A stretch of 64,000 nt of DNA from Patescibacteria group bacterium (lineage in GTDB: Bacteria; Bacillota; UBA4882; JAAYXC01). The notes below the pieces were generated by a model. It was not told the DNA's origin and did no database searches. It worked only from the letters and a program-made list of their open reading frames with translations. Each line of letters opens with the position of its first letter. Position 1 is the stretch's first letter. Made by a program: the position numbers and the translations under genes. Positions 3,478 through 64,000 of this stretch are shown piece by piece. The stretch lies in contig JBLNBS010000042.1 in the NCBI GenBank assembly GCA_050260175.1, positions 1,544 through 65,543 on the forward strand. Reading direction: 5' to 3'.

Positions 3478-4053
3478 ATGAAAGAACCGGCACTGATCGA
3501 ACCAGCGGCGGAATACGAGGCGGAATACCTGGCGATGCTCGCGGAGTGGCGGGCCACGGGCGAGAAGCTCACTCCCTTCGTGCTCAAGATGGACCCGAGC
3601 GATTTCCCGGGTCTGGTGGCCAAACTCAAGCGCTACAGTAGGGGCGAGGGCATCCCCGCGTCGTTCGTCCCGCACGAGACCTATTGGCTGGTGGACGAGG
3701 ACCGCCGGATCCTGGGCGTGGTCAATATCCGGCCCCGGCTCAACGAGAGCTTGATGGTACGCGGCGGGCACATCGGCTACGGCGTGCGGCCGAGCGAGCG
3801 CGGCAAGGGCTGCGCCACGGAGATGCTCCGGCTGGCCCTGGAAAAGACGAAAGCCATGGGACTGGAGCGCGTATTGCTGACATGTGACAAGGAGAATACC
3901 GCCTCGGCGCGGGTGATCGTGAAGAACGGCGGCGTTCTGGAATCCGAGATCCACCTGGATGGCGCGATCGTCCAGAGGTACTGGATCGAGCTACATCCTC
4001 CCCGCGCCGCGGCCGAAAGGAAATCCATCGATGCAATCGTTCCTTCTGAATGA
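3478..4053 (+). CDS. GNAT family N-acetyltransferase
   Basis: GNAT core motif HIGYGVRPSERGKGCATEMLRLALEKTKAMGLERVLLTCDKENTASARVIVKNGG. Confidence 0.75.
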   Translation: MKEPALIEPAAEYEAEYLAMLAEWRATGEKLTPFVLKMDPSDFPGLVAKLKRYSRGEGIPASFVPHETYWLVDEDRRILGVVNIRPRLNESLMVRGGHIGYGVRPSERGKGCATEMLRLALEKTKAMGLERVLLTCDKENTASARVIVKNGGVLESEIHLDGAIVQRYWIELHPPRAAAERKSIDAIVPSE

Positions 4054-9818: not shown

Positions 9819-11618
9819 CTACTCCTCCAGCCGCAGCACGGCCAGGAAGGCCTCCTGCGGCACCTCCACGAGCCCCACCTGTTTCAACCGCTTCTTGCCT
9901 TCCCGCTGTTTCTCCAGGAGCTTGCGCTTGCGCGTGACGTCGCCGCCGTAGCATTTGGCCAGGACGTCCTTGCGCAGGGGCTTGATGGTCTCGCGGGCGA
10001 TGACCCGGCTGCCTATGGCGGCCTGGATCGGGATCTCGAACAGCTGGCGCGGGATCAGCTCTCGCAGGCGGTTGACGAGCGCCTTGCCGCGGGTGTAGGC
10101 CCTCTCCCGGTGGATGACCGCCGAGAGGGCGTCCACCGGCTTGCCGCCGAGGAGAATGTCCAGCTTGACCAGGTCCGCCTCCTCGTGGCCGGCGTACTCG
10201 TAGTCCAGCGAGGCGTAACCGCGGGTGCGCGACTTGAGCTTGTCGTAAAAATCGACCAGGATCTCGGCCAGGGGGAGCGTATAGGTGAGCATGGCGCGGG
10301 CGGCCGAGAGGTAGGTAAGGTCCTCGAAACGCCCCCGCGCCTCCTGGCACAGCTCCATGATCGGGCCGATGTATTCCGCGGGCGCGATGACGGTCGCCTT
10401 GACCACGGGCTCCTCGATGCGCTCGATACGGCCGGCGTCCGGCATCTCGGCCGGATTGCTCACCTCGATCTGCGAGCCGTCCGTGAGGTGGACGCGGTGG
10501 GAGACCCCGGGCGCGGTAAAGATGAGCTCCAGGCCGTACTCACGTTCCAGCCTTTCCTGGACGATCTCCATGTGCAAGAGGCCCAGGAAACCGCAGCGAA
10601 AGCCGAAACCCAGGGCGGCCGAGGTCTCGGGCTCGAACCGCAGCGCCGCGTCGTTGAGCTGCAGCTTGCCCAGGGAATCGCGCAGCCGCTCGTAGTCGTC
10701 GCTGTCCGAGGGGTAGAGCCCCGCGAAGACCATGGACTGGACGCGCCTGTAGCCCGGCAGGGGCTCGGCGGCGGGCGCGGCCGCGGCCGTGACGGTGTCG
10801 CCCACCCTTGTGTCGCGGACGTCCTTGATGCCCGCGATGAGGTAACCCACTTCGCCCGGACCCAGGGAGGCCGCGGGGGTCATCTCCGGGGTAAAGAAGC
10901 CCAGCTCGTCCAGGTCAAAGTCGCGGCCCGAGGCCATGAGCCTGATCTTCATCCCCCGCCGCAGCTCGCCATCGACCACACGGACGTAAGCGATGACCCC
11001 GCGGTAGGGGTCGTAGTGCGAGTCAAAGATCAGGGCCCGCAGGGGGGCGGCGCGCTCGGCGGGCGGCGGCGGCAGGCGGCGTACCACCGCTTCCAGAACC
11101 TCGGCCGTACCGAAGCCCGTCTTGGCGCTGATCGCGATCGTCCCGCCCGGATCCAGACCGGCGACCTCCTCCAGCTCGCGCATGGTCCCCGCCGGATCCG
11201 CGGCGGGCAGGTCGATCTTGTTGATCACGGGGATGATGCGGAGGTCGTGTTCGAGCGCCAGGTAGAGGTTGGCGATGGTCTGGGCCTCGATGCCCTGCGT
11301 GGCGTCGACCACCAGGAGCGCGCCCTCGCAGGCGGCCAGGGAGCGGCTCACCTCGTAGCTGAAATCGACGTGGCCCGGCGTGTCGATGAGGTTCAGGACA
11401 TAGTCCAGCCCGTCCGCGGCGCGGTAGTTGAGGCGGACGGCGCGCAGCTTGATGGTGATCCCCCGCTCGCGCTCGAGATCCATGGAGTCCAGGACCTGGT
11501 CGGTCATGTCGCGGGGCGAGACGGCTCCGGTGGCCTCGAGCAGGCGATCGGCCAAGGTGGACTTGCCGTGGTCGATATGGGCGATGATGGAAAAATTCCT
11601 GATCCTGGACGGATCCAA
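9819..11618 (-). CDS. lepA: elongation factor 4 (LepA)
   Basis: [23 protein letters not shown]-domain, DTPGHVDF, and a C-terminal LepA-specific domain. TTG start at 11618 with AAGGAGGA RBS is preferred over the upstream in-frame start at 11681. Confidence 0.9.
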
Positions 11619-11693
11619 GGGCGCTCCTCCTTGCCGCGGGGACACAGGTCCAATTATAGCACCGGCGCCGGTACGCGGCAAGGAGGGGTTATT

Positions 11694-13637
11694 TCAGGCG
11701 CGGCGGGCTTTCAGGCAGCCGCAGCCCATGGCGACTTCGGCCACGTGGAGGACGGCTCCCAGGTTCAGCTCGAGCGCCATCCGGCCGGAGAGGAGGGATC
11801 CCGAGCCGGTCCTGGCGATGGCCGCGTCGGGTTGGATCTCGTCCAGCTCCAGTTCGAGCAGGTCCACGATCTCGAGGAGCGAGCGCCGGCCGTCGGCCCA
11901 ATAGGCGAGGCGGAAGAAGACGAGGTCCAACTCGTTCCCGTACAGGGCGGAGAGGAAGGCGCGGGCCTCCGCGGGGGGCAGCCTGATCTCGGGGGGCATG
12001 GTCATGCCCAGCGTGGCGCGGGAGAGGACGAGGGACGAGGCGGCCTCCAGATCGCTCCTCGCGGCGCGGCGGGGTGCCTCGCGAGGAAAGCTCATGCGCC
12101 GGCGCTCGCACCAGGCCTCGACCTGGGCCGCAAGTTCCTCAGCCAGCGCCGCGCACTCGGGCTCCGGCAAACCGAATCGCCGCAGTGAAGCGCAGAGGAT
12201 GCCAAAGCGCAGGTTGAACCAGCGCTTTGTCCGTTCGAGGCCGAAGGGCCAGGAACCCCCGAGCAGCCTCAGCTCCGTCCGGAAAAGCCTCTCCCGGCAG
12301 GCGGCGGCGGCCACGGCAGCCAGGTATCGCGCCTCGCGGGGGCCGGCATCGGCCAGGAAATAGAGGTGGGTGGCGCAGAGATTGCCCACGGCCTCCATCA
12401 CATCCGCGTCGAGCGTATCCGGGCGGTCGGAGGAGGCGTGGTAGTGGCGGGCTGGGTACTGGATGAGGGTCGGCAACGGGATACCGATATTGGGATCGGC
12501 CGTGACCGCGTCATTGATGATCTCGGCCCGGTCCGCCACGGATTTCCAGCGCAGGGCCGGCGAGAGGATTTCGCGGCAGAGGTGTTCCGCCAGGTAGCCG
12601 ACGCAGGACTCGCCCGCGGCCGGCGGCATGAATAGATGCAGGACCGACCTTCCCTCCGCCTGGTTCACGCCGATCTCGTCGATATTGATCCCGCCCAGGA
12701 AGCGCGGGATGCTCTCCCGGTGCGCGTGGACCCAGGCCAGGAGGCCGAATCCCTCCCAGCCCAGCAGGAAACGGATGCCGCGGCGGGGCCGGGGGATCGT
12801 GCCTCCTTCGATGGCGGCGTTGAGGCCGCGCGCGATCTCCAGCGCCAGCCCTGCTCCGGACGCGTTGTCGTTGGCGCCGGGCTCGAAGAGGTGGGAGATG
12901 AGCAAGACCTCCCCCGCGTCGGGATCGGCGCCGGGGATGTGGGCGGTGGCCGATTTCATGACGCCGTCGTAGAGGCGGGTCCTGACCTCCGCCCTCAGGC
13001 GCACCGGCCCCTGTGCCAGCATCTCCCGCAGCATGGCGCCCTGGCGGGGCGTGAGCATAAAGCCCCAGTGCTCGCCGGGATAAGGCTTGAAGGCAAAATT
13101 CTCCCAGCGCACCGCGTCGGGGAGGTCGAAGGCGTCGCGCACGCCGGGCAGCGTGCCGAGGAAATCCGAGACGATGCCCTTGATGCCCAGGGCGCGCATC
13201 TCCGGCAGGACATCCATGATGCGCCGCCGCGTAAAGGGGATCTTGCCCGCCGGCGGGGCGGGCGTCTCCCCGTTCCATTCCACGAGCTCGCCCTCGCAGG
13301 CGCACGACCCGGAGTACATGACGAGGGTTTCGGGCGTGATTGACCAGTCGGCCAGGATCCTGCGCTCGGGGTGTACCATGGCGAGGACGGCCGAATCCAC
13401 GTCCCAGGCCTGCATGGCCCGCCAGCCGGACCAGGCTGTGCGCCCGTCGGCGGGAAAGACCTCGGTACGTGCTTCGGCCAGCCCGGCCCTTGCCAGTTCC
13501 TCCCGGCAGTAGTCGGCGGATTGTTCAAAACGCGGGAAGGTAAAGAAGCGTTCGAGGCGATTGAGCTCCGCCGCCTGCCGCGCGGCGCGCCGTCCATGGA
13601 GCGAACCGGCAAAGCGCGCGAAGAATGACCTCCACAT
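11694..13637 (-). CDS. M28-like (DUF4910-type) aminopeptidase-like domain protein with C-terminal extension
   Basis: ISHLFEPGANDNASGAGLALEIARGL metallopeptidase-like core. Divergently transcribed from the catabolic locus. Confidence 0.5.
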   Translation of the reverse strand: MWRSFFARFAGSLHGRRAARQAAELNRLERFFTFPRFEQSADYCREELARAGLAEARTEVFPADGRTAWSGWRAMQAWDVDSAVLAMVHPERRILADWSITPETLVMYSGSCACEGELVEWNGETPAPPAGKIPFTRRRIMDVLPEMRALGIKGIVSDFLGTLPGVRDAFDLPDAVRWENFAFKPYPGEHWGFMLTPRQGAMLREMLAQGPVRLRAEVRTRLYDGVMKSATAHIPGADPDAGEVLLISHLFEPGANDNASGAGLALEIARGLNAAIEGGTIPRPRRGIRFLLGWEGFGLLAWVHAHRESIPRFLGGINIDEIGVNQAEGRSVLHLFMPPAAGESCVGYLAEHLCREILSPALRWKSVADRAEIINDAVTADPNIGIPLPTLIQYPARHYHASSDRPDTLDADVMEAVGNLCATHLYFLADAGPREARYLAAVAAAACRERLFRTELRLLGGSWPFGLERTKRWFNLRFGILCASLRRFGLPEPECAALAEELAAQVEAWCERRRMSFPREAPRRAARSDLEAASSLVLSRATLGMTMPPEIRLPPAEARAFLSALYGNELDLVFFRLAYWADGRRSLLEIVDLLELELDEIQPDAAIARTGSGSLLSGRMALELNLGAVLHVAEVAMGCGCLKARRA

Positions 13638-14020
13638 CCGGACGTCCCCCTTTCCCTTCGATTATCAATCTCGGATGGCCGCGGAGCAAGGGTTCCTCTT
13701 CCGCCCCTGGGCCGTCCCGCGTCCCATTGGCGGCAAATACGGGGCATGTGCGGAGGTGGATGCAGCGAGAGGGCGGTTATTTAACTTTCTCCCAGAATGA
13801 AAGAAATAGACCCTTGTCCTGGCGGGCAAATGGACACACGCTGATTTACCAGGGAAAATAAGTTCGAACAGGCAGGAATCGTCCTTTGAGGCCAGAACAT
13901 GTTTGATAATCGTTGCAGAGCGTGAAGTTCTCTTCCAATTATTTCAACCAGATAGAAAGAAAAAGGTACCATCCCCTGTACGGCTTGGCATGGCGAAAAC
14001 TCCCGGGGAGGTCTTGGCAA

Positions 14021-15391
14021 GTGGCCTGGGCACGGAAGGATACCTGGCGCAAGGAAGCCGCACTCGTCGAGCAGGTTCTCGAGGCGGCACCGCCCATAGA
14101 CCGCCATCTCCGCATCGGGAGGGAGGAATTCGAGGCGCGCCGGCGCAAGGTCGTCGCGGCGCTGGCCCGGCGGGGGCTGGACGCGGGCGTGGTGTATTGC
14201 GACGCGCATTACAACGGCGACGTGCCCTACCTCGGCGGCAACACCAACATCACCATCGAACCCGTGGCCGGTGTGGTCGGTCCCGGTGGATTCCACATCC
14301 TGGCCGGCCTCGAGGGCGGCTACGTGGTCGAGCAGCTTGCCAAGAGGTCCGGCGCGATCGTGCACAAGGTCGAGATGCTCAAACTCGCGGACGAGAACTA
14401 TCCCATCGAGGCTGAGCGGGTGGAGGACGTCATCGCCGCGGCGGCCGGCGGGCGCCCGTCGCGCATTGGCCTTCTTACCCCGCGGCAGGTGCTGCCGGCC
14501 AGTTTCTATCAGTTCCTGGCCGGCTATACGGGCTCTCCGGACGGCGCCGGGGTCATCGACGTCCAGGAGGATTACTACCGTATCAAATACCTCAAGTCAG
14601 ACGCGGAGATGCGCCTCATCGGCGAGGCCAGCAAGATCGCTGACGTGATGATCCGGGCCATGCTGGCGGTGCTCAAACCCGACATGCTCGAGACGGAGGT
14701 CGCCGCCTGGGGGTGTCTCGTGGCCAAGGAACTGGGCGCGGAGGAGATGGGCTGGGATGTGATGGTCACGGCCAACACGGCCAACCGCACCCTGATCGGC
14801 AAGGCGCTCAACCGGCCCATCAACCGGGGCGACATGGTGCATATCGGCGTCGCGCCCAAGTGCGACGGCCTCAATTCCTGCGAGCGCGTCTCCGTGGCCG
14901 CGGTGGCCGATCCCGCGGAGGTCACGCCCGCGCAGCGTTACTGGTTGGATTTCGTGGGCCGGGCCTTCGAGGCGGGCCTCGCGGCCTACCGCCGGGTGGC
15001 GGCCGAAAATCTCCCCGCCAGGCTGCAGGAGCAGGCACTGGTGGACTACTTTGCCGCCAGATCGGCCGAGGTCTCGGCCCGTGTGGGCCGCCCGGTGGAC
15101 ATGACCAGGCAAAAGCCGTATACGGGCACGCACAACGGCGGCTACACCGAGTGCCAGGAGTTCTACGGCGCCATCACGCTCGATTCGGAGGAGCCGCTCG
15201 GCGGGCAGATCGTCACCATGCTCGACGTGGCCGTGCGCGGGGTGGGCGACAGTTTTGACGACGTGATCATCCCGGATCTGGACTACGTCGTGGTCGAAAA
15301 GACCCTGGGCAAATACGGCCCCAGGGTGGAGGTGCTCAACAAGCTACCCGTGGACGTGCAGCACCTGGTGGGGCACGCCGGCGGGGTGTGA
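14021..15391 (+). CDS. creatinase/prolidase-like M24 family peptidase (paralog 1)
   Basis: Creatinase_N-like plus M24 'pita-bread' domains. About 65% identical to the paralog at 26056..27411. GTG at 14021 (RBS GGGGAGG) aligns with the N-terminus of paralog 2; ORF track gives 13913. Confidence 0.65.
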   Translation: MAWARKDTWRKEAALVEQVLEAAPPIDRHLRIGREEFEARRRKVVAALARRGLDAGVVYCDAHYNGDVPYLGGNTNITIEPVAGVVGPGGFHILAGLEGGYVVEQLAKRSGAIVHKVEMLKLADENYPIEAERVEDVIAAAAGGRPSRIGLLTPRQVLPASFYQFLAGYTGSPDGAGVIDVQEDYYRIKYLKSDAEMRLIGEASKIADVMIRAMLAVLKPDMLETEVAAWGCLVAKELGAEEMGWDVMVTANTANRTLIGKALNRPINRGDMVHIGVAPKCDGLNSCERVSVAAVADPAEVTPAQRYWLDFVGRAFEAGLAAYRRVAAENLPARLQEQALVDYFAARSAEVSARVGRPVDMTRQKPYTGTHNGGYTECQEFYGAITLDSEEPLGGQIVTMLDVAVRGVGDSFDDVIIPDLDYVVVEKTLGKYGPRVEVLNKLPVDVQHLVGHAGGV

Positions 15392-52796: not shown

Positions 52797-52836
52797 AATC
52801 TTACAATCGTCTTACACGGCAATGGGAGGGGAAAAG

Positions 52837-53088
52837 GTGGTATACACGCGTCTGTCAAGCAAGGGACAGGTCGTGATCCCGGGAAGCATACGATCGGCGC
52901 ATGGCTGGGGTGCCGGGACGGAGCTTGTGGTCGAGGATCGCGGGGATGCAGTCATCCTCCGCGTGGCCCGGCCTTTTCCGCCGACCAGGGTTGACGAGGT
53001 CTGGGGTTGCACGGGTTACGGCGGTCCAAAGCGGACCCTGAAGGAGATGCGGTCGGCCATCGTCAAAGGAGCCCGCGAACGGCGATGA
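52837..53088 (+). CDS. vapB: AbrB/MazE-family antitoxin VapB
   Basis: VVYTRLSSKGQVVIPGSIR swapped-hairpin DNA-binding motif. GTG 52837 after GGGAGGGGAAAAG (ORF track gives ATG 52822). Confidence 0.75.
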   Translation: MVYTRLSSKGQVVIPGSIRSAHGWGAGTELVVEDRGDAVILRVARPFPPTRVDEVWGCTGYGGPKRTLKEMRSAIVKGARERR

Positions 53089-53477
53089 CAGCCGTGGATA
53101 CCAATGTGCTGGTCCGGTTGCTCACCGACGATGACCCGTCCCAGGCGGAACGCGCCGCCCGCCTGTTCCAGGACGGGTCCGTATTTATCGCCAAGACCGT
53201 GCTTTTGGAGACCGAGTGGGTGCTCCGTCATGCCTACGGCTTGAGCCGGGATGTATGCAACGCGGCTTTTGTCAAACTCTTGGGCCTGCCCGGTGTGAGC
53301 GTGGAGGACATGCCTGCGGCCGGTAAGGCCATGGCGTGGTACGCGGCGGGTTTGGATTTCGCCGACGCGCTCCACCTGGCCGCGGCTGGCGGCGCCGAAC
53401 GCTTCGTGACTTTCGACCGGGATTTCGTCAAACGGGCCGCAAAAGTCTCGGCCGATGTGGAAGTGCGGTTGGTATGA
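53085..53477 (+). CDS. vapC: PIN-domain toxin VapC
   Basis: MTAVDTNVLVRLLTDDD N-terminal PIN acidic motif. ATGA start/stop overlap with vapB. Confidence 0.8.
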   Translation: MTAVDTNVLVRLLTDDDPSQAERAARLFQDGSVFIAKTVLLETEWVLRHAYGLSRDVCNAAFVKLLGLPGVSVEDMPAAGKAMAWYAAGLDFADALHLAAAGGAERFVTFDRDFVKRAAKVSADVEVRLV

Positions 53478-53551
53478 TTGATGGACGTGCTCGCGTCCGG
53501 GCCTTCCTCCCTATCCTCCGGAGGGGGCATCTGTTGCGACAAAATCCGGGT

Positions 53552-53935
53552 TTAATTCATCATTCTACATTCATCATTCATCATTGCTCTTAGCAGCAGT
53601 CTCATCCCATCCAAAAAAGCCCTCTCCCCGAGCATCGCCGTCTCCAGGTAATGCGCCGATCCCAGGGCCTCGCTGTATTGGAGGAGCATCCTTTGGCCCT
53701 CCTCGGGCAGCATCTCCCGCAATTGCGCGTAGAGGCGGGAGGCCTTTTCCTGCTGCACATGGTACTCCTTCGGCGCTTGGCTCGTATCAACTCGGTCCAA
53801 GCGGGAGCAGATGAATTCCCTGAGATCGACCATGAAGTCGTCGTCGAAATAGGAACGGTCGCGGGCGAGGAGGGGGGAACGGGATGCGGGGGAAACCGGT
53901 AATTGGTAGAGCACGGTGATCGCGCCCTCTCTCAT
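53552..53935 (-). CDS. hypothetical protein
   Basis: 127-aa ORF with balanced composition. Its 3' end overlaps AT-rich repeat copy 2. Confidence 0.35.
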   Translation of the reverse strand: MREGAITVLYQLPVSPASRSPLLARDRSYFDDDFMVDLREFICSRLDRVDTSQAPKEYHVQQEKASRLYAQLREMLPEEGQRMLLQYSEALGSAHYLETAMLGERAFLDGMRLLLRAMMNDECRMMN

Positions 53936-54017
53936 GTTATTGCTTGGGTGTCTTTAGGTCAATTATAATCAATAAGTTATTGAATGTCAATAGATATACC
54001 CAACCCGTATTGACCCG

Positions 54018-54026
54018 TGGTATAAT
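54018..54026 (+). promoter_or_regulatory. extended -10 promoter element (TGgTATAAT)
   Basis: TGGTATAAT about 22 nt upstream of the RHH gene TTG start. Confidence 0.45.
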
Positions 54027-54047
54027 GCCAGCGGAGGGGGATGGCAG

Positions 54048-54221
54048 TTGGCGGTAGGAGCGGGGAAGAGGAACCAGACCGTGGTGCTGGACAAGGAGGT
54101 ATATGAGGTCGTCAACAATCTGGCCTGGGAGCAGCGGAGGAGCTTTAGCAACATGACCAACATGCTTTTGCGAGAGGTCCTGCAGGCGCGGGGCTTACTG
54201 GCAAAGGACTCTCAAAAATAA
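54048..54221 (+). CDS. ribbon-helix-helix (CopG-like) protein, putative orphan antitoxin/regulator
   Basis: TTG start after GGAGGGGGA. The translation LAVGAGKRNQTVVLDKEVYEVVNNLAWEQRRSFSNMTNMLLREVLQARGLL fits an RHH beta-strand plus two helices. 57 codons, so it fell below the ORF-track threshold. Confidence 0.5.
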   Translation: MAVGAGKRNQTVVLDKEVYEVVNNLAWEQRRSFSNMTNMLLREVLQARGLLAKDSQK

Positions 54222-54966
54222 CAGAGCCCATCTCGAGGATATTTTTTGTACTAACCAGCGAGGAAGTCTTGGTCACGTTACTCATTCTGCATTCTTCATT
54301 TATCATTGCCTTCATCCCGTGAACCGTTTGGCCAGGGAGCATCTTGAGTCCCGCGGCCTTTTGCGCAAGTGGGAACCGAGATCGTAAGCAAATGAGGCCA
54401 ATCGCTTCCAGCCACTCTTTATGTAAGAGAGCGGTGGTATCTCAACGCCAGGATGAGCGGCTGACTCGCGATCCGCCGACTCGTGACCAGCTTTTTTTCG
54501 GGCCGTCATTCTTTGACGGTCTCGTTTGTTACTCTTGACATATGGCGGGAGATTGGCAGGAATCGGGGAGCGGGTGGGCGAATTTTTGGATAGTGATGGC
54601 AATCACATTGGGGCGCCTGAGGCAGCGGTTTCCGTGGCTGGTGAATGTCCGGATGCGAGTGGTGGTGGAATAACGCCTACCGAGGACGCATTGATCGCGT
54701 TGCGCCGTATTCCGGCAGTTAATACTGATGATATTGAGTATTTAGCGAACCCAGCTCTACGCATGACCGATGGTCAAGTAATGGGTGAAGGTCATTTGCA
54801 CATAATACTAAAGACATAGGGTTTCATTCCTCTTCAAAATAGTTGGATAAAGTAAATAGGAAGAAGGTCGGCGGGTTCTGAAGAGGGTTTTAGCATATGT
54901 GGCGAAAATTTAAATACAGTTTATCTTTATCATGTAGAGTATAATCACTGAAGGCGAGGATGACCT

Positions 54967-56826
54967 TTGACCAATCAGCAGATAGGTCAATTTTTCCAAA
55001 CAACGAATGTCAATATCATGGATAATGCTTTTCTCCGTGAACCTCAGATCGGTGGCTATCAGGCAGCATGTGAGCATTTCTCCCGTAGCCGGGCGCATGC
55101 TATTTTGCAGATCCCTGTCGGTTGTGGTAAGACTGGGCTTATGAGTATTTTACCATTTGGTATGGCCGAAGGTCGTGTACTCATAATCGTCCCGAACCTA
55201 GAAATTCGCCGGGGGGTGGCGCATGAACTCGATATCACAAACAATCAATGTTTCTGGAATAAGGCCCATGTTCTTCGCGACTACTCTACTGGTCCCTATC
55301 GTGCAGAGCTCGATAGCGACGCCAATATTCATGATTGTCGAAGAGCGCATTTTGTAATCACAAATATCCACCAATTGGCAAATCGTGTTGACCGATGGTT
55401 GCCAAAATTTGAGGATAACTTTTTTGACCTTATCTTGGTTGACGAAGCTCACCATAATGCTGCAGAAAGTTGGCAACGTGTATTCGAAAGATTTCCTAAT
55501 GCCAAGGTCATAAGTTTAACCGCCACTCCCTTCCGTTCTGATGGACGTCCGGTTGAAGGACAATCAATTTACCGATATTCTTTCGCAGAAGCTATGCGTA
55601 ATGGATATATTAAGCAACTTCGTGTGGCTGATGCGCAACCTGCACAGATATATTTTACTTTTCAAGGTGATGAATATCACCACTCTCTTGAAGAAGTCCT
55701 TGCTCTTCGCGAAGAAGCGTGGTTCCGACTGGGGATTGCACTTTCTCGACCGACAAATGAGACAATTGTAAATTCGAGTCTGGAGTTACTTGATCGGTTA
55801 CGTTCAGCTGGTCGTCATCATCAGATCGTTGCAGCTGCATGTAGTATTAACCATGCACGTGATATAGCCTCTTTATATCGAGAACGTAATTACTCAGCAG
55901 ATGTGATATCTAGTGATATGCGTTCAGAGGAACGGGAGTCGGTTCTTCAACGCCTTAAGTGTAATCAACTCGATTGCATCGTTCAGGTAAACATTCTTGG
56001 TGAAGGATTCGATTGGCCTCAACTTAGCGTTGCGGCTATCTTTCGCCCTTTCCGTAGTCTTGCACCATATATCCAATTCGTCGGCCGAATCATGCGCGTC
56101 CTTGAGCAAAACGACCCATATCATCCAGATAACGAAGGTTGGGTGATTTCGCATATTGGTCTTCAACAGGATGAACGGTGGGAAGATTTCCAACGCTTTG
56201 ATGAGGATGACCAGGAACTCTTCCGGAACATAGCACATGGAAATGATCCTGGTCCGCGTGAAGGAAATGGTTCAGAGCGTCGACGCTTAAAACCAGATAT
56301 GCGGGTTATCAATGAAGTCCTTGATCGCCTTGTAACTCGGGATTTTCTTGATCCTACGGATGCCGGTGCGGTCGATGCCGTCTTAGCAGAAATGCGTCGT
56401 ACGTTAGGTGTAGAACCAGAAGAGATCGGGCTTTCGCGTGAAGAGCTAGCCGGCCGCCTTCTTCAAGCTCGTAGACGCGAGCAAGTCCACCCAAGACCTC
56501 GGCCAGTCCAACCTCAAGACCGTCGCCGTGAGCAACAGCGTCGCCTTGATGAAGCGGCTCGATCTGTAGCCGGTCGGATTCTTGAAGTCTTAGGTCTATC
56601 ACCTTCCGGTGTAGATATTATTAGGCGAATGCCTGAGCTTGCATCAGCCCATAACAACATCGGAGCGGCAATCCGCCTTATGCACCGTAAAGTGAACGAG
56701 AGTATGGGTTTCCAACCAGGCCATCGTCGTGAGCTTGATATTCCAGAACTAGAGCAAGCTCTAGAACATCTTGATGAATATGGGGATGTTTTAGAGGCGG
56801 AACTTCGTCATCAGCTAGGGAGGTAA
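54967..56826 (+). CDS. SF2 DEAH-box helicase (ResIII-type helicase core plus C-terminal helicase domain)
   Basis: Q-motif QIGGYQAACEHF, Walker A VGCGKTG, DEAH box LVDEAHH, motif III SLTATP. AT-rich codon usage. Confidence 0.75.
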   Translation: MTNQQIGQFFQTTNVNIMDNAFLREPQIGGYQAACEHFSRSRAHAILQIPVGCGKTGLMSILPFGMAEGRVLIIVPNLEIRRGVAHELDITNNQCFWNKAHVLRDYSTGPYRAELDSDANIHDCRRAHFVITNIHQLANRVDRWLPKFEDNFFDLILVDEAHHNAAESWQRVFERFPNAKVISLTATPFRSDGRPVEGQSIYRYSFAEAMRNGYIKQLRVADAQPAQIYFTFQGDEYHHSLEEVLALREEAWFRLGIALSRPTNETIVNSSLELLDRLRSAGRHHQIVAAACSINHARDIASLYRERNYSADVISSDMRSEERESVLQRLKCNQLDCIVQVNILGEGFDWPQLSVAAIFRPFRSLAPYIQFVGRIMRVLEQNDPYHPDNEGWVISHIGLQQDERWEDFQRFDEDDQELFRNIAHGNDPGPREGNGSERRRLKPDMRVINEVLDRLVTRDFLDPTDAGAVDAVLAEMRRTLGVEPEEIGLSREELAGRLLQARRREQVHPRPRPVQPQDRRREQQRRLDEAARSVAGRILEVLGLSPSGVDIIRRMPELASAHNNIGAAIRLMHRKVNESMGFQPGHRRELDIPELEQALEHLDEYGDVLEAELRHQLGR

Positions 56827-56830
56827 TTAC

Positions 56831-57085
56831 ATGTCCAGAGGACGTATAAAGAGCATTCTACATACCGCACATATTAGTCAAGCAAGTTTACGAGGGCGAC
56901 ATCGTATTTGCCGTGGAGATAGTAAAAATCATATTATTCCCTTTGGTGGTTGGTACCTTGGCATAAAGGACGGGTTGGAAGAAAAGAGTTACTGTTTAAA
57001 ATGTGCTCGTGCCATCTTGGAAAAAGGACAAATGAAGCTTGATATTCTTATTAAAAATCTCGAAAAAGCTGAACGTAATGCTTAG
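56831..57085 (+). CDS. small zinc-ribbon protein
   Basis: 84 aa with CRGD...CLKC cysteine pairs, 4 nt after the helicase stop. Confidence 0.4.
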   Translation: MSRGRIKSILHTAHISQASLRGRHRICRGDSKNHIIPFGGWYLGIKDGLEEKSYCLKCARAILEKGQMKLDILIKNLEKAERNA

Positions 57086-57191
57086 TAGATTATCAAAATC
57101 TCCAGTTCAATCGATTATTATAACTTTTATTGATATAGGAGATAAAGTACTGCTGGGTTTTGTATGTATCGGAAAGGAGTATTGATGGAAT

Positions 57192-59135
57192 ATGAGTCAA
57201 CAATTGCATCTCTTTCCTGATAGCTCTTTTTCATTTGGTCCGCGCTTTTTGCACGATCACGCAGGCCGCATCATTACTGATCCTCGTATTGCACTTGTTG
57301 AACTTGTTGCAAACTCGTATGATGCTGGTGCTTCACTCATTAAAATTCAATGGCCGGATAACATAGGTGGTATATTTCAAGTTGAAGATAACGGTACAGG
57401 AATGACAATGGATGAATTCAATAAAAGATGGAGGACGCTTTCGTATAGTCGAGTACTAGAACAGGGACCTTATGTTGAATATCCACCTGATGTAAAAGGA
57501 ACGAAACGGATAGCGTTTGGCCAAAATGGAAAAGGAAGATATAGTCCTTTTTGCTTTGCTGATGCATATGAGGTGGAGACCTGGAAAAACGGGAATAGTA
57601 TTGTGGCAAGGGTTGAACTCACTCAAGGTGGTATTGAACCATTTCACTGCGAAATCATAACTGAAGGAACTAGAAAAGGACATGGAACATGCATACGTGC
57701 AGCTATTGATCGTAATCAAATTTCAGTCGCTAGTGTATCTGAAGCAATAGGCTCCAAGTTTTTAGTTGATCCATTCTTTTCTGTTTTTATTAATGAAATT
57801 AAACTTGAACTTTTTTCGCTATCAGGCATCGCAAGTACTTCACTGCAATTGGATCCGTATGGTACTGTAGTAATTCATCAGATTGATGCACAAATGCAAG
57901 ACAGAACAATGTTCTTACGAGGAATTACATGGTGGGTTAACAAGCGAATGGTAGGTATCTCACCATCATGGGATGGATTAGATGGGCGTGGTGCAATTTT
58001 GGACGGGCGGACAGCACTTGCCAAGCGCTGTAGTTTCATTGTGGAAGTAGATTTTCTGAAAGAAGACGTAAAAGATGATTGGACTGGATTTCGTGACACG
58101 CCACGTGTCTTAGCAGTACGTGACACGGTCCGTAACTATGTGATTGAAGCACTCAATAAGCTCCTTGCAGAAAATCGAAGAGAGCGAAAACTTGAAGCAT
58201 TGGCTCAGAACAGAGAAGTCCTTGGCCGTCTTCCTACATTATCAAAACGTTTAGTTGGTCAATTTATTGATGAAGTTCAACAAAGTTGTCCCACCTTATC
58301 CCAAGGTGACTTAGAACGGGCAGTTACGATTTTTACAAAGATGGAAGCAGCTCGGAGTGGCTATGAACTCCTCGAAAAATTAGCCGCTTGTTCCCCAGAT
58401 GATTTGGATACATGGAATAAACTCATGGAAGAATGGACAGCAAGCAATGCAGAGATCATTCTTAGTGAATTAAAACGGCGTCTTGATCTTATTCAGCGTA
58501 TGCAACAACTCGTTAATGTCGCAACAACCGATGAACTTCATGAACTACAACCATTATTTGCCCGTGGTTTATGGATCTTTGGACCAGAATACGAATCAGT
58601 AGAATTTACCTCCAATCGAGCGATGGCAACAATCATCAATAATTATCTTGGGGGTACTTCAAATTCACTTTCCAATCGCCGACCAGATATAGTAGCTCTA
58701 CCTGACAGATCGATTTGTTGCTATACAGCAGATAAATTTGATGATAATGGTGAAGTGGATGGAATTAGAAAGGTTCTCATTGTCGAACTGAAAAAAGGTG
58801 GATTTATACTACGAACTACTGAGCTTCGCCAAGGTGAAGACTACGCTCAAGAATTACAAAAAGCTAATCTTGTAACAAAGAGCACAGAGATTATCGTATA
58901 TGTTTTGGGAGCTCGGTTGTCTGACGACGCAACCGAAGAACGTACAATTGGATCATCAATAAAGATTATACCCATGACCTATGATACAATATTGAAACGT
59001 GCGCACGCTCGGACGTTTAACTTACAGCGAAAATTACAGATTATCGAACCTGCTCCTACACATGATAGAGATGTTGAAGATATCATATCAGTACCTTTAT
59101 TTAAAAGTGTAACGATTGATAAAGCTATGACATAA
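57192..59135 (+). CDS. GHKL (HATPase_c, MORC/MutL-like) ATPase domain protein with uncharacterised C-terminal half
   Basis: Bergerat-fold motifs ELVANSYDAGAS (N-box) and VEDNGTGMTMDEF (G1 box) within the first 120 aa. Confidence 0.65.
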   Translation: MSQQLHLFPDSSFSFGPRFLHDHAGRIITDPRIALVELVANSYDAGASLIKIQWPDNIGGIFQVEDNGTGMTMDEFNKRWRTLSYSRVLEQGPYVEYPPDVKGTKRIAFGQNGKGRYSPFCFADAYEVETWKNGNSIVARVELTQGGIEPFHCEIITEGTRKGHGTCIRAAIDRNQISVASVSEAIGSKFLVDPFFSVFINEIKLELFSLSGIASTSLQLDPYGTVVIHQIDAQMQDRTMFLRGITWWVNKRMVGISPSWDGLDGRGAILDGRTALAKRCSFIVEVDFLKEDVKDDWTGFRDTPRVLAVRDTVRNYVIEALNKLLAENRRERKLEALAQNREVLGRLPTLSKRLVGQFIDEVQQSCPTLSQGDLERAVTIFTKMEAARSGYELLEKLAACSPDDLDTWNKLMEEWTASNAEIILSELKRRLDLIQRMQQLVNVATTDELHELQPLFARGLWIFGPEYESVEFTSNRAMATIINNYLGGTSNSLSNRRPDIVALPDRSICCYTADKFDDNGEVDGIRKVLIVELKKGGFILRTTELRQGEDYAQELQKANLVTKSTEIIVYVLGARLSDDATEERTIGSSIKIIPMTYDTILKRAHARTFNLQRKLQIIEPAPTHDRDVEDIISVPLFKSVTIDKAMT

Positions 59136-59253
59136 GTTTAAATAACGAACACTTTTTTTGATAATTAAGTAGATTATTCAAATTCTTGGCAGGATGTTCC
59201 CTCTAGGTGGCAAATTCTTGGCCCTATTCCCCAAAGACAGGAGATGCCGTTCC

Positions 59254-61893
59254 ATGCCTCCCAAACGCCGCCAGGATACGACCGCCGAGGCCTACGATCA
59301 CAAAGACCAGGAGGCCCTCCTCCGCCCGGACGTCGGCCTCCAAGCCCAGTTCAAGAAGAAGAAACTTCCGGTGAAGTACCGCTACGACCCTTCGCTCGAT
59401 CCAGAATTAAGCTGGGACATCAATGCCGATCGGGAGCGGGCCGAAGTCCTGATCGAGCAGATACGCACGGCCAGCACGCTTGAGGAGGCCAAGGCCGCCG
59501 CTGAGCAGCTCAAGCGAATGTCCCAGCCCTTCCTCAACTGGGCCGGTAAAGCCGAGCGGTCCGAATTCACCGTGCCCACGCTGCCGCTCTTTGTCCATGA
59601 GCGGCTCTCGACCAAGGCTATTCTGGAATCCGTCCGCACCAGGAAACGCATGATCGGTCTTTTTGCCGATCCCGAGCTGGCTATCGCCGATCGTGCGCTA
59701 AAGGCCTACGAGCACAAGACCGGCTGGGTCAACCGCCTCATTCTGGGCGACAGTCTTGTCGTCATGAATAGCCTCTTGCAGTATGAGGGTCTCGGCGGCC
59801 AGGTCCAGATGATCTATATGGACCCGCCGTATGGCGTAAAATTTGGGTCGAACTTCCAGCCATTCATTCGCCGGCGCGACGTCAAACACAACGATGACGA
59901 GGATATGACCCGGGAGCCGGAGATGGTGCAGGCGTATAGGGATACTTGGGAGCTTGGGCTACATTCATATCTTACGTATCTGCGTGACCGTTTGTGGCTT
60001 TGCCGTGAACTATTATCGCCAACAGGTTCAATATTCATCCAAATCAGTGACGATAACTTGCATATGATCCGTTGCTTGATGGATGAGGTTTTTGGTGCAG
60101 GTAATTATCTTAACACAATTGCCTTTGTAAAAACGAGTGGTGTTACCACTAAATTTTTACCTAGTCGGATTGACTTTTTAGTTTGGTATGCTCGAAATAA
60201 AGAGTATTCAAAATATCATCAAATTTACGTTACAAAATCAACAGAGATGGGTACAGCAGAAAACTACAACTGGATCGAGTTACCTGATGGTACAAGACGT
60301 GGTTTGACCGCAGCAGAAAGACGTGACCGAACTTTAGTTCCAAACAATGCAAAGATTTATAAACCAGATAACATAACTAGTCAGGGTAATCCAATTTTTG
60401 ACTTTGAATATCAGGGAAATGTTTATCGTCAGGCATGGAAAACAACCCCCGAAGGACTAAGAAGGCTTGCATCTGCAATGCGCCTACATGTAGCAAAAAA
60501 TTCACTGCAATATGTCAGGTATCTTACAGATTTTCCGTGTGTCCCAGCAACACAGCTTTGGGAAGATACTGGCACTGGTAGTTTCACTGATGATAAGATT
60601 TATGTAGTACAAACAGGGACAAAAGCCATTGAGCGGTGCATCCTCATGAGCACCGATCCCGGTGACCTCGTCCTCGACCCCACCTGCGGTAGCGGCACGA
60701 CGGCCTACGTTGCGGAGCAGTGGGGCCGGCGGTGGATCACCATCGACACGAGCCGCGTGCCGATCGCCCTGGCCAAGCAGAGGTTGTTGACCGCGACCTA
60801 CGACTATTACGAGCTGCGGGATGAGAAGGCCGGAGTCGCGGGCGGGTTCAAATACGAGCGTAAGCAGAACAAGAAAGGCGAGGAAATAGGCGGCATTGTG
60901 CCGCATATCACCCTAAAAAGCATCGCCAACAACGAGCCGCCGGAGGAAGAGGTCCTGGTGGACCGGCCCAACATCGTACCGGGCGTGGTGCGGGTGACCG
61001 GGCCCTTCGTTGTTGAGGCGACCATCCCGACACCGGTGGATATCGATGCCGACGGCGTCGAGGATTCCGGCGTCCCGGCCGGTGACCACTACCAGCGGAT
61101 GTTGGAGGTGCTGCGGCGTTCGCCCGTGCTGCGGTTGCCGGGCAACCGAACCGTCACATTCAAGAACGTCCGCCAGCCCGCGAAATCGCTCAACCTGCAC
61201 GCCGAGGCGATAATCGAGGGAAACGGCGAAAAGCCGGTGGCCTTCCTCTTTGGCCCCGAGAGCGGCGCGGTCAGTGAAAAGATGATCTATGAGGCGGCGC
61301 GCGAGGCCCATGGCAAGAGCTATGCCCATCTCTACATCATCGGCTTTGCCTGCCAGGATGCGGCTACCCGCTTGATCCGCGAATGTGAAAGCGTGATGGG
61401 TATCCCGGCCACTTTTGTCGCGGCCACCATGGACCTCGCCATGCACGACCTGCTCAAGACGAGCCGCGCTAGCCAGGTTTTTAGCGTCACGGGCGCGCCC
61501 GAGATCAAACTGCTCAAGCTCAAGCAAAAGGGGGCCAACGGCGAGGATCTCTATCAGGTCAAGCTGTTGGGCCTGGACGTCTTTGATCCCGTCACCATGG
61601 AGACCGATCACCTCCAGGGCGACGACGTTCCCGCGTGGTTCCTCGACACGGACTACAATGAGCTGTCCTTCCTGGTCGGCCAGGCGTTCTTTCCGCGCAC
61701 CTCTGCGTGGGACAGCCTCAAGCGGGAATTGAAGGGCGTTTACCTCGACAGCGTCTGGGAGCACCTGGCCGGCGATACGAGCGAGCCCTTTACCGCGGGC
61801 GACAACGGCAAGATCGCCGTCAAGGTCATCGACGAGCGGGGCAACGAACTGATGGTGGTCAAGCCCCTGGCCGAGGCGGAGGTGGAGGCATGA
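59254..61893 (+). CDS. mod: type III restriction-modification Mod subunit (beta-class N6-adenine/N4-cytosine DNA methyltransferase)
   Basis: Motif IV IYMDPPYG (around 59815) precedes motif I DPTCGSGTT (around 60680), with a variable middle region between them. ATG 59254 after AGGAG. The stop overlaps the res start. Confidence 0.8.
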   Translation: MPPKRRQDTTAEAYDHKDQEALLRPDVGLQAQFKKKKLPVKYRYDPSLDPELSWDINADRERAEVLIEQIRTASTLEEAKAAAEQLKRMSQPFLNWAGKAERSEFTVPTLPLFVHERLSTKAILESVRTRKRMIGLFADPELAIADRALKAYEHKTGWVNRLILGDSLVVMNSLLQYEGLGGQVQMIYMDPPYGVKFGSNFQPFIRRRDVKHNDDEDMTREPEMVQAYRDTWELGLHSYLTYLRDRLWLCRELLSPTGSIFIQISDDNLHMIRCLMDEVFGAGNYLNTIAFVKTSGVTTKFLPSRIDFLVWYARNKEYSKYHQIYVTKSTEMGTAENYNWIELPDGTRRGLTAAERRDRTLVPNNAKIYKPDNITSQGNPIFDFEYQGNVYRQAWKTTPEGLRRLASAMRLHVAKNSLQYVRYLTDFPCVPATQLWEDTGTGSFTDDKIYVVQTGTKAIERCILMSTDPGDLVLDPTCGSGTTAYVAEQWGRRWITIDTSRVPIALAKQRLLTATYDYYELRDEKAGVAGGFKYERKQNKKGEEIGGIVPHITLKSIANNEPPEEEVLVDRPNIVPGVVRVTGPFVVEATIPTPVDIDADGVEDSGVPAGDHYQRMLEVLRRSPVLRLPGNRTVTFKNVRQPAKSLNLHAEAIIEGNGEKPVAFLFGPESGAVSEKMIYEAAREAHGKSYAHLYIIGFACQDAATRLIRECESVMGIPATFVAATMDLAMHDLLKTSRASQVFSVTGAPEIKLLKLKQKGANGEDLYQVKLLGLDVFDPVTMETDHLQGDDVPAWFLDTDYNELSFLVGQAFFPRTSAWDSLKRELKGVYLDSVWEHLAGDTSEPFTAGDNGKIAVKVIDERGNELMVVKPLAEAEVEA

Positions 61894-64000
61894 GCCAGCT
61901 CCACGAGGTCGATCGGCCGATCATCAACAGCCCTTATGAGGAACCGACACAGTATTATGAGATCGTGCCCGGCGAGCCGCCAGTGCTCAAGCAGGGCCGC
62001 CGGCCGGCTTTTTACTACTATCGCCCCCCCGCGCGCAAACCGGGCCAGGATCCCACGGGTGATCCCGGCAGGCGCGAGGAATTGGCGCTCGTCAACGAAT
62101 TGCGCCGGCGGGTCAAGGAATGGCGGGAAAAGGACTACCCCGGCGTGACCAGGACCACGCTGGATCTACTAAACTACTGGCAAAAGCCTGATAGGGAGCT
62201 CGATCGGCGCCTCTTCTTTTGCCAGCGCGAGGCGGCGGAGACGGTCATCTTCTTAGTCGAGGCCAGGGCGGATCTCCGCCAGGGCCTGGAGATCCCCCGC
62301 GACGAGCCAGGCGATGACGGCAAGGCCAAGGGTTACACCGGTTTCGTCCGCTACGCCTGCAAGATGGCGACCGGCAGCGGCAAGACCACGGTCATGGCCA
62401 TGCTCGCGGCTTGGAGCATCCTGAACAAGATAAACAGTCGCAATGACGGGCGTTTCTCCGACGTGGTCCTCGTCCTCTGCCCCAACGTGACCATCCGCGA
62501 ACGCCTGGGTGAACTCGACCCGAACCTGGGCGAAAAGAGCATCTACCGTACGCGCGACCTGGTGCCGCCGGGCCTCATGGAACAGCTCCGCAAGGGTTTC
62601 GTCGTCGTCACCAACTGGCACGTACTCGAGCCTCGGGCCGGCAACCAGGTGAACGGCGAGAGCGCGCGCGTGGTCGATAAAGGACCGGAATCGGATACCG
62701 CCCTCGTCCAGCGAGTCATGGGCAGGCACGTCGGTGGCAAGCAAAACATCCTGGTCATGAACGATGAGGCCCATCATGCCTATCGACTCGGCAAGGGGGC
62801 AAACGGCGAAGACGAGGAGATGGAGGAAGAAGAGGCGGGGGAGGACGACGAGGAGCGCAAGGAGGCCACGGTCTGGATCGGCGGTCTGGACAAGATTCAC
62901 AAGGTGCGCGGGATCAATCTCTGCGTGGATCTCTCCGCCACCCCTTACTACCTCAACAACACGGGCAACGATCCCGGCCGGCCCTTCCCTTGGGTCGTCT
63001 CGGATTTCGGCCTCATCGACGCCATCGAGAGCGGCCTGGTCAAGATCCCGCAACTGCCGGTCCAGGACAGCACGGGCGAGATTATCCCGGCCTATTTCAA
63101 CGTCTGGAAATGGATCCTCGAAGAAAAGCTGACCAGCGCGGAAAGAGGCGGGCGCCGCGGCCAGATCAGTTCAAAGGCCGTGCTCAAATACGCCCAGGTG
63201 CCGATCGCGCAGTTGGCCGGGCTCTGGCGCGAGACCTTCAGGGAATGGCAGAAGGATCCGATGATCCACCCGACGCCGCCGGTCTTTATCATCGTCTGCC
63301 GGGACACGACCCTGGCCAAGGCGGTCTACAACTGGATCGCGAACGGCGAGGGCGAGACGGACAAGCTCATCGAGGAGTTCTTGAATCGCGACGGTAAACG
63401 GTACACGGAGAGAGTGGACTCAAAGGTGGCGGCGGAGATCTCATCCGGCACGACGAAGAGCAACGAGACAAAAAGGCTCCGCTTCGTGCTCGAAACCGTC
63501 GGCCGGACCACCTGGCCGGGCAACAAGCCGCCTGATGAATGGGTGAAACTCGCCGAGGAACTGGGCGTGGATCCTTTCATACCGCCCGGGCGCGACGTGC
63601 GCTGCATCATCTCCGTGGCTATGCTCACCGAGGGCTGGGACGCCCGCACGGTCACGCACATCGTGGGCCTACGGCCCTTTGAGTCGCAGCTCCTCTGCGA
63701 GCAGGTGGTGGGCCGCGGCCTGCGGCGGTCGCAATACCAGGATCTGACCATCGAGGAGGAGGCCAAGGTCTACGGCGTGCCGTTCGAGATCATCCCGTTC
63801 AAGGCGCCGCCGCGTGGTCCCGTGTCCCCGCCGCCCAAGACTCATCATGTCTATGCAATGCCCGAACGGGCGCATCTGGAGATCATCTTCCCTCGGGTGG
63901 AGAGTTACGCCTATGCCATCAGGAGCCGCATCACCGTTGACTGGGAGTGCGTGCCGCGGCTGATCATGGACCCGCTTGACGTCCCGCCCGATGTGCTGGT
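61890..64000 (+). CDS. res: type III restriction enzyme Res subunit (helicase-nuclease), partial, continues beyond window end
   Basis: ATGA overlap with mod. Walker A MATGSGKTTVMA, DEAH box VMNDEAHHA, and an open frame to position 64000. It is not in the ORF track because no stop lies in the window. Confidence 0.75.
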   Translation, partial: MSQLHEVDRPIINSPYEEPTQYYEIVPGEPPVLKQGRRPAFYYYRPPARKPGQDPTGDPGRREELALVNELRRRVKEWREKDYPGVTRTTLDLLNYWQKPDRELDRRLFFCQREAAETVIFLVEARADLRQGLEIPRDEPGDDGKAKGYTGFVRYACKMATGSGKTTVMAMLAAWSILNKINSRNDGRFSDVVLVLCPNVTIRERLGELDPNLGEKSIYRTRDLVPPGLMEQLRKGFVVVTNWHVLEPRAGNQVNGESARVVDKGPESDTALVQRVMGRHVGGKQNILVMNDEAHHAYRLGKGANGEDEEMEEEEAGEDDEERKEATVWIGGLDKIHKVRGINLCVDLSATPYYLNNTGNDPGRPFPWVVSDFGLIDAIESGLVKIPQLPVQDSTGEIIPAYFNVWKWILEEKLTSAERGGRRGQISSKAVLKYAQVPIAQLAGLWRETFREWQKDPMIHPTPPVFIIVCRDTTLAKAVYNWIANGEGETDKLIEEFLNRDGKRYTERVDSKVAAEISSGTTKSNETKRLRFVLETVGRTTWPGNKPPDEWVKLAEELGVDPFIPPGRDVRCIISVAMLTEGWDARTVTHIVGLRPFESQLLCEQVVGRGLRRSQYQDLTIEEEAKVYGVPFEIIPFKAPPRGPVSPPPKTHHVYAMPERAHLEIIFPRVESYAYAIRSRITVDWECVPRLIMDPLDVPPDVL

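Follow-up and report, generated by a model that had tools for sequence, protein, structure and literature searches.

The 64,000-nucleotide stretch of contig JBLNBS010000042.1 analysed in this study (the window, with coordinates counted from its first letter) raises the question of whether three co-oriented genes, carried by an AT-rich segment at positions 54830-59200, form one system or have come together as separate units. They encode a superfamily 2 (SF2) helicase of 619 amino acids (aa) (54967-56826, + strand), an 84-aa protein (56831-57085, +) and a GHKL ATPase-nuclease of 647 aa (57192-59135, +), and are followed by a type III-like modification and restriction gene pair (mod and res). The initial annotation, which had been drawn from the letters of the DNA, took the trio for a candidate novel anti-phage or anti-plasmid module, or for an accessory to the type III system. 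Our analysis makes it probable that this AT-rich 4.4 kb is part of a defence island built by the stacking of independent mobile modules, and not one three-gene system. The helicase and its 84-aa partner are referred to below as cassette A and the GHKL gene as cassette B.

The compositional break on which the annotation had relied was borne out. The segment has a guanine plus cytosine (GC) content of 42.6%, against a mean of 63.7% (standard deviation 3.0, minimum 57.4%) in 244 windows of the same size from positions 1-53000, a z value of about −7. The GC content at third codon positions (GC3) is 0.36 in the helicase gene, 0.28 in the 84-aa open reading frame (ORF) and 0.28 in the GHKL gene, versus 0.68 in mod and 0.83 in res. 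The segment 54830-59200 is a compositionally foreign, horizontally acquired piece of a defence island, and the history of mod/res, with GC3 values of 0.68-0.83 against 0.28-0.36, is separate from that of cassettes A and B. The coordinates given by the annotation for the three ORFs were exact, and all three ORFs are intact. Its domain calls also stood, since the Pfam families ResIII and Helicase_C, HATPase_c_3 and N6_N4_Mtase were recovered for the SF2 helicase, the GHKL ATPase and the type III-like mod/res, respectively. The same can be said of the defence-related setting; both families occur in defence or mobile contexts.

The unity of the trio was not upheld. A scan of one genome per GTDB species yielded 77 GHKL loci, of which 49 were near full-length at 36-72% identity. 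Neither the helicase nor the 84-aa ORF was found by tblastn beside the GHKL gene in any of these 49 full-length loci, and the same loci revealed no conserved neighbour of any kind. The helicase and the small ORF are likewise missing beside the closest GHKL relatives: one (P0002, 76% identity) is accompanied by an antitoxin and PycTM, another (P0004, 72%) by non-defence genes, and the third (P0005, 70%) is preceded by a PDDEXK/RNase H gene (P and L numbers designate proteins and loci, respectively). On the helicase side, relatives at 83, 82, and 59% identity (L079, L080/81, and L082) keep an ORF of 72-84 aa located 4 bp downstream, without a GHKL gene, and the pair is followed there by unrelated genes (of 234 and 283 aa) or by nothing co-oriented. 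When the window was compared with these loci by blastn and tblastx, the alignment was confined to positions 54967-57085. The GHKL gene was present in only one (L086) of 48 dereplicated helicase clusters. Thus, bar one family of Rhizobium plasmids considered below, the three genes have essentially no conserved co-occurrence in other genomes, which the annotation itself had named as an outcome that would speak against its reading.

The linkage inside cassette A is of a very different order. It was assessed in 88 helicase loci (80 metagenomic, four from contig look-ups and four from plasmids), in which the partner was sought with a hidden Markov model. The small partner was directly downstream of the helicase in 83 of them, and three of the five misses coincided with contig ends, which leaves 83 of 85 informative loci. 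Across these loci the helicase stop and the partner start overlap or are separated by a few bp. In addition, the pairwise identities of the helicase and of the partner are correlated (Mantel r of 0.73, a value reached by none of 999 permutations). The helicase and the small Cys/His protein are a tight, co-evolving two-gene cassette. No third conserved gene was found beside the pair after dereplication to the 48 helicase clusters, and the commonest neighbour cluster was present in at most 12 of the 88 loci. A conserved third gene downstream was considered and rejected, the genes that follow the pair in L079, in L080 and in the window being unrelated to one another. This tight pairing, together with the C-terminal nuclease of the GHKL protein described below, had been missed by the initial annotation.

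The first gene of cassette A, with Pfam matches to ResIII (E value 4e-23) and Helicase_C (2e-14), is intact and starts with TTG at position 54967, preceded by a Shine-Dalgarno-like sequence, GAAGGCGAGGA. Its N-terminus, MTNQQIGQFF, agrees with the family consensus. The RecA-like core comprises residues 23-380, with the motifs PVGCGKTG, DEAHH, TATP, and QFVGRIMR all intact, while the C-terminal portion of about 220 aa is family-specific. Pfam revealed no recognisable nuclease domain in the protein. The database holds 3281 relatives of the helicase; those among the matches listed are mostly about 620 aa in length and conserved from end to end, including the C-terminal 220 residues. An N-terminal MerR/HTH_17 fusion was observed in relatives of 676-709 aa (P0217, P0220, P0221, P0224, P0230-P0233, P0236, P0237, P0239, and P0240).

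The second gene begins 4 bp past the helicase stop and its ORF is intact. The signature of the 84-aa protein is C-x6-H ... C-x2-C (C27, H34, C55, and C58), followed by a C-terminal amphipathic helix. Over 79 distinct partner sequences, C27 was conserved in 100%, C55 in 96%, C58 in 92%, and H34 in 80%, and an additional Cys was present at position 42 in 78% of them, where the window protein has Y. The annotation had called this protein a Zn ribbon; no match was found for it in Pfam, PADLOC or NCBIfam, and it is the conservation of the Cys and His residues that suggests zinc binding. A phmmer search against 1.84 billion representatives returned 14 matches, two of which (P0331 and P0339) were repeat-protein artefacts; given that small ORFs are under-called, this count is not a measure of family size.

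Several well-known helicases resemble the product of the first gene in its core only (residues about 23-380). They include RadD, which is the closest solved relative (6jde, E value 3e-21), SauUSI (7clg), the type I restriction subunit R (3h1t), and XPB. The assignment to RadD was rejected, as NF053632, although the best NCBIfam match of the helicase, scored 82.9 bits, far short of its cutoff of 720, and over the core only. A SauUSI-type enzyme was rejected as well: the PADLOC model mREase_IV was matched over profile positions 235-553 of 945, again the core, and no PLD or DUF3427 domain was found with Pfam. All PADLOC matches of the helicase (mREase_IV, PbeA, and REase_I/III) were at the level of the core. 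What sets the window helicase apart from RadD, SauUSI, the type I and type III R subunits and XPB is that it has no PLD, PD-(D/E)xK or DUF3427 domain and that it has an obligatory Cys/His partner of about 80 aa in trans.

Regarding its surroundings, cassette A was found in the 48 helicase clusters among HsdS/M/R, Eco57I-type methylases, TIR, AbiEii, HerA, integrases and resolvases. In several loci the helicase start overlaps the stop of hsdR, and in others the helicase comes after brxL. The genes located 3' of the pair are of diverse kinds: UvrD-like with DarT and an ADP-ribosylglycohydrolase, HEPN-SNF2 with a sacsin-like gene, Cas12b-like, Shedu (L141), and Res homologues (L158 and L149). Some of these loci deserve a separate description. 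In one metagenomic clade (L090, L091, and L116, in the latter at 10090-14559) the pair is directly followed by a gene for a protein of about 1490 aa with a C2c1/Cas12b RuvC-like domain. In L141 a Shedu gene (PF14082) follows the pair at 3097-4482. In L158 (1343-5309) the pair is followed, with no mod between, by a Res homologue 38% identical to the window Res over residues 7-487, and the contig ends inside this gene.

The family is also carried by mobile replicons. The helicase was present on 91 plasmid records, among them Col-type plasmids of about 6 kb. In these Col-type plasmids a rep gene with Replicase and PriCT_1 domains is followed by the helicase and then by the small ORF, and the rep stop overlaps the helicase start. 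Examples are the Hafnia plasmid NZ_OX460966 (L084, 3263-6176) and plasmids of 6-7 kb from Serratia, Salmonella, and Erwinia, the pair being virtually their sole cargo. No match to the helicase was found among 50,697 phage genomes, and it was present on 18 IMG/VR contigs, often near the contig ends. No system of PADLOC 2.0 or NCBIfam was matched by the pair, and no description of a two-gene system composed of a helicase and a zinc ribbon was found in the searchable literature. Cassette A is a widespread uncharacterised pair, set in defence and mobile-element surroundings.

As for cassette B, the GHKL ORF is intact and matches HATPase_c_3 with an E value of 3e-13 (Pfam). An AlphaFold2 model (mean confidence score, pLDDT, of 77) divides the protein into a GHKL domain (residues 1-190), a beta-rich, S5/transducer-like domain (197-300), a helical region (304-465), and an alpha/beta PD-(D/E)xK nuclease domain (478-615). 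In an alignment of the family of the window protein with 29 relatives, the GHKL motifs E37, N41, and D44, D66xGxG70, G110xxGKG115, and G165-T166 were invariant, and so was a C-terminal nuclease signature (E466, D499, E532, and K534, i.e., E-D-ExK). HATPase_c_3 was found in all 29 relatives. Foldseek searches with the whole model returned Hsp90/TRAP1, MORC2/3/4, MutL LN40, and GyrB/ParE over 350-480 columns, and the folds are consistent with the division into domains given above. The TMt against MutL LN40 (1nhh) was 0.47, and the alignments with MutL, MORC3/4, and Hsp90 span 350-400 columns, corresponding to GHKL plus the second domain, which is evidence at the level of the fold. The sole PADLOC match of the protein was REase_II (PDLC03419), over the GHKL domain. 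A type II enzyme of the BbrUII/HgiDII kind was rejected, since NF050001 scored 85.5 bits against a cutoff of 550, with its best stretch in the GHKL domain.

The GC content of the GHKL gene is below that of its surroundings in 46 of the 49 loci. Its 82 immediate neighbours are heterogeneous and include seven ResIII/SNF2 helicases, a few methylases, resolvases, integrases, AIPR, AbiEii and RhuM, as well as RecA and metabolic genes. Those neighbours that are large helicases and methylases correspond to DrmD (1385-1405 bits) and DrmMI (1693-1738 bits) of class 1 DISARM. Type III-like mod/res or an N6_N4 methylase lies at a distance of up to 10 kb in L004, L021, L027, L036, L039, L055, and L067; the order in L055 is mod-res-GHKL, and in L067 and L004 the N6_N4 methylase is immediately upstream of the GHKL gene. 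Taking the DISARM and type III-like loci together, roughly 30% of the GHKL loci are near an N6-methylase-based system, which fits the association with restriction-modification (R-M) reported in 2008 and is far from obligate. Judged from these loci, cassette B is an autonomous single-gene unit.

The GHKL gene was also seen in the company of complete systems. It lies between drmD and drmMI in L038 (6756-16185) and beside them in L018 (10001-19279), L019, L025, and L042. This placement relative to class 1 DISARM fits the embedding of defence genes within other systems. DISARM genes are absent from the window, and the association concerns about 10% of the GHKL loci. Additionally, a canonical Shedu gene (PF14082) follows the GHKL gene by 11 bp in L086 (11452-14857) and follows a GHKL fragment in L065 (10001-11856).

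The annotation had stated that the trio matched no named defence system, and thereby overlooked two descriptions that are relevant to the GHKL protein, in spite of having pointed correctly to paraMORC for this gene. The paraMORC3 proteins combine GHKL, S5 and a C-terminal nuclease of restriction-endonuclease (RE) fold with an E-D-ExK signature (Iyer, Abhiman and Aravind, 2008, Biol Direct 3:8; PMC2292703). They are sporadic and laterally mobile; a large subset is stand-alone, without conserved neighbours, and a minority is in methylase/helicase operons (PMC2292703). The GHKL ATPase, the S5-like domain and the RE-fold nuclease are all present in the window protein, which is here likened to paraMORC3 by the published description of its architecture. 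A difference concerns distribution, as paraMORC3 was described mainly in Proteobacteria and Bacteroidetes, whereas the relatives collected here are mostly from metagenome-assembled genomes (MAGs) of Planctomycetota, Acidobacteriota, Verrucomicrobiota and Chloroflexota, and the host is a Firmicute.

The second description is that of VcSduA, a validated single-gene anti-phage protein with a GHKL ATPase, a middle or clamp domain and a C-terminal PD-(D/E)xK (Adams et al., 2025, Nat Microbiol, PMC12137116; Gu et al., bioRxiv 2023.08.10.552793). Its E27A and K557A mutants are inactive, so both active sites are required (PMC12137116), and it is filed under Shedu type I-D because DUF4263 is present. 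The window protein has the same order of ATPase, middle domain and nuclease in a single polypeptide, with E37 and K534 as the equivalents of E27 and K557. It differs from Shedu in that SduA_C/DUF4263 (PF14082) was undetected in its family: none of the 29 GHKL members matched PF14082 at E ≤ 5, nor did the isolated C-terminal region, and a database search found none in the relatives of a distant Sulfurimonas member. By comparison, genuine Shedu genes in the collected loci score 61-73 bits, and in L086 the canonical Shedu is a separate protein that adjoins the GHKL protein. Membership of Shedu was also tried with hhalign against one and three Shedu sequences, with insignificant results, and with the profile of the GHKL alignment against PDB sequences, which was negative or insignificant. 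In our assessment the GHKL protein would be best filed as paraMORC3-type, with a likeness to VcSduA; the Shedu label is unproven.

The resemblance to Hma that the annotation had proposed was rejected. Hma is composed of the SNF2/DEAD helicase HmaA, the 5-methylcytosine (m5C) methylase HmaB and the ATPase HmaC (Payne et al., 2021, PMC8565338), and the likeness is a loose one, with a helicase, a methylase and an ATPase in one neighbourhood. The window proteins had no match to HmaA (E ≤ 0.01) or HmaC in PADLOC-DB 2.0, and the methylase is of the N6/N4 type, not m5C as HmaB. The HmaA model scored 260-325 bits on the SNF2 helicases located beside GHKL relatives in L018, L038, and L053.

For the complexes, defence functions and mechanisms of the modules we infer the following scheme. 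The translationally coupled SF2 helicase and its partner of about 80 aa (54967-57085) are an autonomous module that is carried by chromosomes and plasmids and comes to lie next to R-M, BREX and other immune genes. The two proteins may form a complex, with the small protein as a DNA-binding or regulatory subunit, and the ATP-driven translocase would act on invading DNA. The GHKL protein (57192-59135) is predicted to dimerise via its ATPase domain, by analogy with MutL, MORC, Hsp90 and VcSduA; ATP binding and hydrolysis would gate the C-terminal PD-(D/E)xK nuclease, which would then cut foreign DNA. The type III mod/res pair would act on its own as a third module.

Some observations weigh against this independence of the modules. 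In the window the genes are co-oriented and lie only 4 and 106 bp apart, and a scan revealed no terminator-like site in the intervals, so that co-transcription is possible. On a family of Rhizobium plasmids (NZ_CP072166 and two relatives), the sole other co-occurrence of cassettes A and B, the order helicase (45% identity), small ORF, 154-aa ORF, GHKL (37%) and canonical Shedu gene is repeated, in a defence island with ABC-3C, VapC, HD and radical-SAM genes and insertion sequence elements; for two rare families, such a recurrence of order and orientation may exceed chance. It must also be considered that a general association of MORC and paraMORC genes with SFII helicases and methylases has been reported (Iyer et al., 2008; PMC2292703), that about 30% of the GHKL loci have an N6-methylase-based system, either type III-like or DISARM, within 10 kb, and that the defence role of the helicase pair and of the GHKL family is itself a prediction from sequence. 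In the rival reading, which is that of the annotation, the three genes would be one system of helicase, zinc protein and GHKL-nuclease, in which the helicase pair would sense or translocate DNA and hand it over to the nuclease. We regard this as very unlikely in view of the 49 GHKL loci devoid of helicase and small ORF, the closest relatives on either side that are likewise without the missing part, the single helicase cluster of 48 with a GHKL gene (L086) and the end of homology at 57085; moreover, the helicases beside GHKL relatives belong to other families, i.e., DrmD-type SNF2 or type I/III R. The N6-methylase-based neighbours raise a related matter, namely that one or both cassettes could be accessories of the adjacent type III R-M, for instance with the GHKL-nuclease as an additional ATP-gated nuclease that reads the methylation state left by Mod, in the sense that Iyer et al. 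(2008) gave to paraMORC within R-M. The mod-res-GHKL order of L055, the upstream methylases of L067 and L004, the type III-like pairs within 10 kb in L021, L027, L036, and L039, the drmD/drmMI genes that flank or enclose GHKL in L018, L019, L025, L038, and L042, and the Res homologues after the helicase pair in L158 and L149 would all agree with such a role. Nonetheless, about 70% of the GHKL loci, and the majority of the helicase loci, are without a methylase in the vicinity, the composition indicates an origin separate from that of mod/res, and the adjacency of defence genes is expected from islands and from the embedding of one system in another, so that we hold an accessory role to be improbable.

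A further alternative, compatible with a composite island, is that the helicase pair is not immune at all and serves the repair, replication or maintenance of mobile elements as a RadD-like enzyme with its zinc module in trans. RadD is both the closest solved relative of the core (6jde, E value 3e-21) and the best NCBIfam match, the helicase start overlaps the Replicase/PriCT rep stop in Col-type plasmids of about 6 kb, some relatives have MerR/HTH_17 fusions, and neither a nuclease nor any other toxic effector can be recognised. This function is nevertheless unlikely: the RadD model requires 720 bits and gives 83, a rep gene is absent from most loci, and hsd and BREX operons repeatedly have the cassette at their 3' end. 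It also recurs in the company of TIR, Abi and Shedu genes, its spread across phyla and plasmids is patchy, and it had no match in 50,697 phage genomes. It is also conceivable, if rather doubtful, that the pair is a portable motor or sensor against mobile genetic elements that teams with whichever swappable nuclease or effector is adjacent; its partners would then be the GHKL-nuclease (in the window and in Rhizobium), Shedu (L141) and the Res homologues (L158 and L149), the window trio being one such case. A better prospect is that the helicase pair constitutes by itself a new defence system of two genes, although we would put it at somewhat less than an even chance.

Under the stacked-module reading that we prefer, the entire island is an ordinary defence mosaic, in which the GHKL-nuclease belongs to a described kind and the helicase pair is an unnamed candidate. 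With the GHKL-nuclease, the stand-alone paraMORC3/VcSduA-like class, which was recently shown to be anti-phage, gains a representative from a Firmicute and a large clade that is for the most part uncultured. The cassette of the helicase and the mini zinc protein, in turn, has thousands of helicase relatives and is repeatedly docked 3' of type I R-M and BREX operons, and it is absent from the naming of PADLOC 2.0 and NCBIfam.

The neighbouring Mod, of the N6/N4 beta class, is encoded at 59254-61893 (+) and matches N6_N4_Mtase (2e-34) and the PADLOC model MTase_III (523 bits, 2.7e-157). Its ORF is open from 59194, while the gene call on an identical 6.5-kb Logan contig (L001) starts at 59254, which is probably the true start. 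The protein has the motifs DPPY ... FxGxG with a central variable region and an insertion of about 100 residues relative to the N6_N4_Mtase profile. The centre of the gene (59750-60500) has 38-48% GC versus 57-63% in the remainder, and this low-GC portion, between DPPY and FxGxG where the target-recognition domain (TRD) is located, suggests a swapped specificity domain. The annotation had the AT-rich segment end exactly where a GC-rich mod begins; mod is a mosaic, not GC-rich throughout, and its start is probably 59254 and not 59194.

The partial Res (61890-64000, +) overlaps the mod stop in an ATGA at 61890-61893 and continues past the end of the window at 64000. It matches ResIII with 29.4 bits (cutoff 22.5) and has the motifs GSGKT and DEAH; no PADLOC match (REase_III) was found for the partial protein at 1e-10. 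The pair resembles an EcoP15I-like type III R-M system in its N6_N4 Mod with a central TRD, in its ResIII motifs and in the mod-res overlap, with Res read up to the end of the window; it is distinguished by a composition unlike that of the two adjoining cassettes. The only tandem repeat found, an 18-nucleotide unit in 2.7 copies at 62808-62855, is inside res and encodes an acidic, Glu/Asp-rich stretch, EDEEMEEEEAGEDDEE.

Regarding the borders of the AT-rich segment, its upstream edge proved to be a ramp and not a step, with a GC content of 0.53 at 53478-54829. The fall from about 0.64 to 0.53 begins just past a gene for a PIN-domain (VapC-like) toxin (53007-53477, +; Pfam PIN, E value 9e-12), which is part of neither cassette. 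As this gene marks the onset of the fall, the acquired region may begin about 1.8 kb upstream of 54830. An 88-aa ORF at 52822-53088, which overlaps the start of the PIN gene, is a possible small antitoxin. No tRNA gene and no match to Rfam families was found in the 64-kb window, integrase and recombinase families were absent among the Pfam matches of the ORFs upstream of the island, and a scan for promoters and terminators gave counts not above those of shuffles.

An imperfect direct repeat brackets the GHKL gene, with a left copy at 57081-57100 (TTAGTAGATTATCAAAAT, no strand) and a right copy at 59165-59187 (TTAAGTAGATTATTCAAAT, no strand), the latter between the GHKL stop and the mod start. 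The copies agree at 14 of 16 bases, a marginal result given the maximum of 13 in 30 shuffles, and this short repeat is possibly an insertion scar. It was rejected as a signature of the GHKL cassette, as it was found in the window only and was absent at 44 other GHKL loci.

Finally, the region 1-53000 encodes sporulation proteins (SpoVAE, 2.6e-68, and SpoIIP, 8e-55) and also ABC sugar transporters, at 64% GC. The sporulation proteins together with the high GC content identify the host as a high-GC, spore-forming Firmicute, and the name under which the source MAG is held at NCBI, 'Patescibacteria group bacterium', looks like the result of mis-binning or mislabelling.

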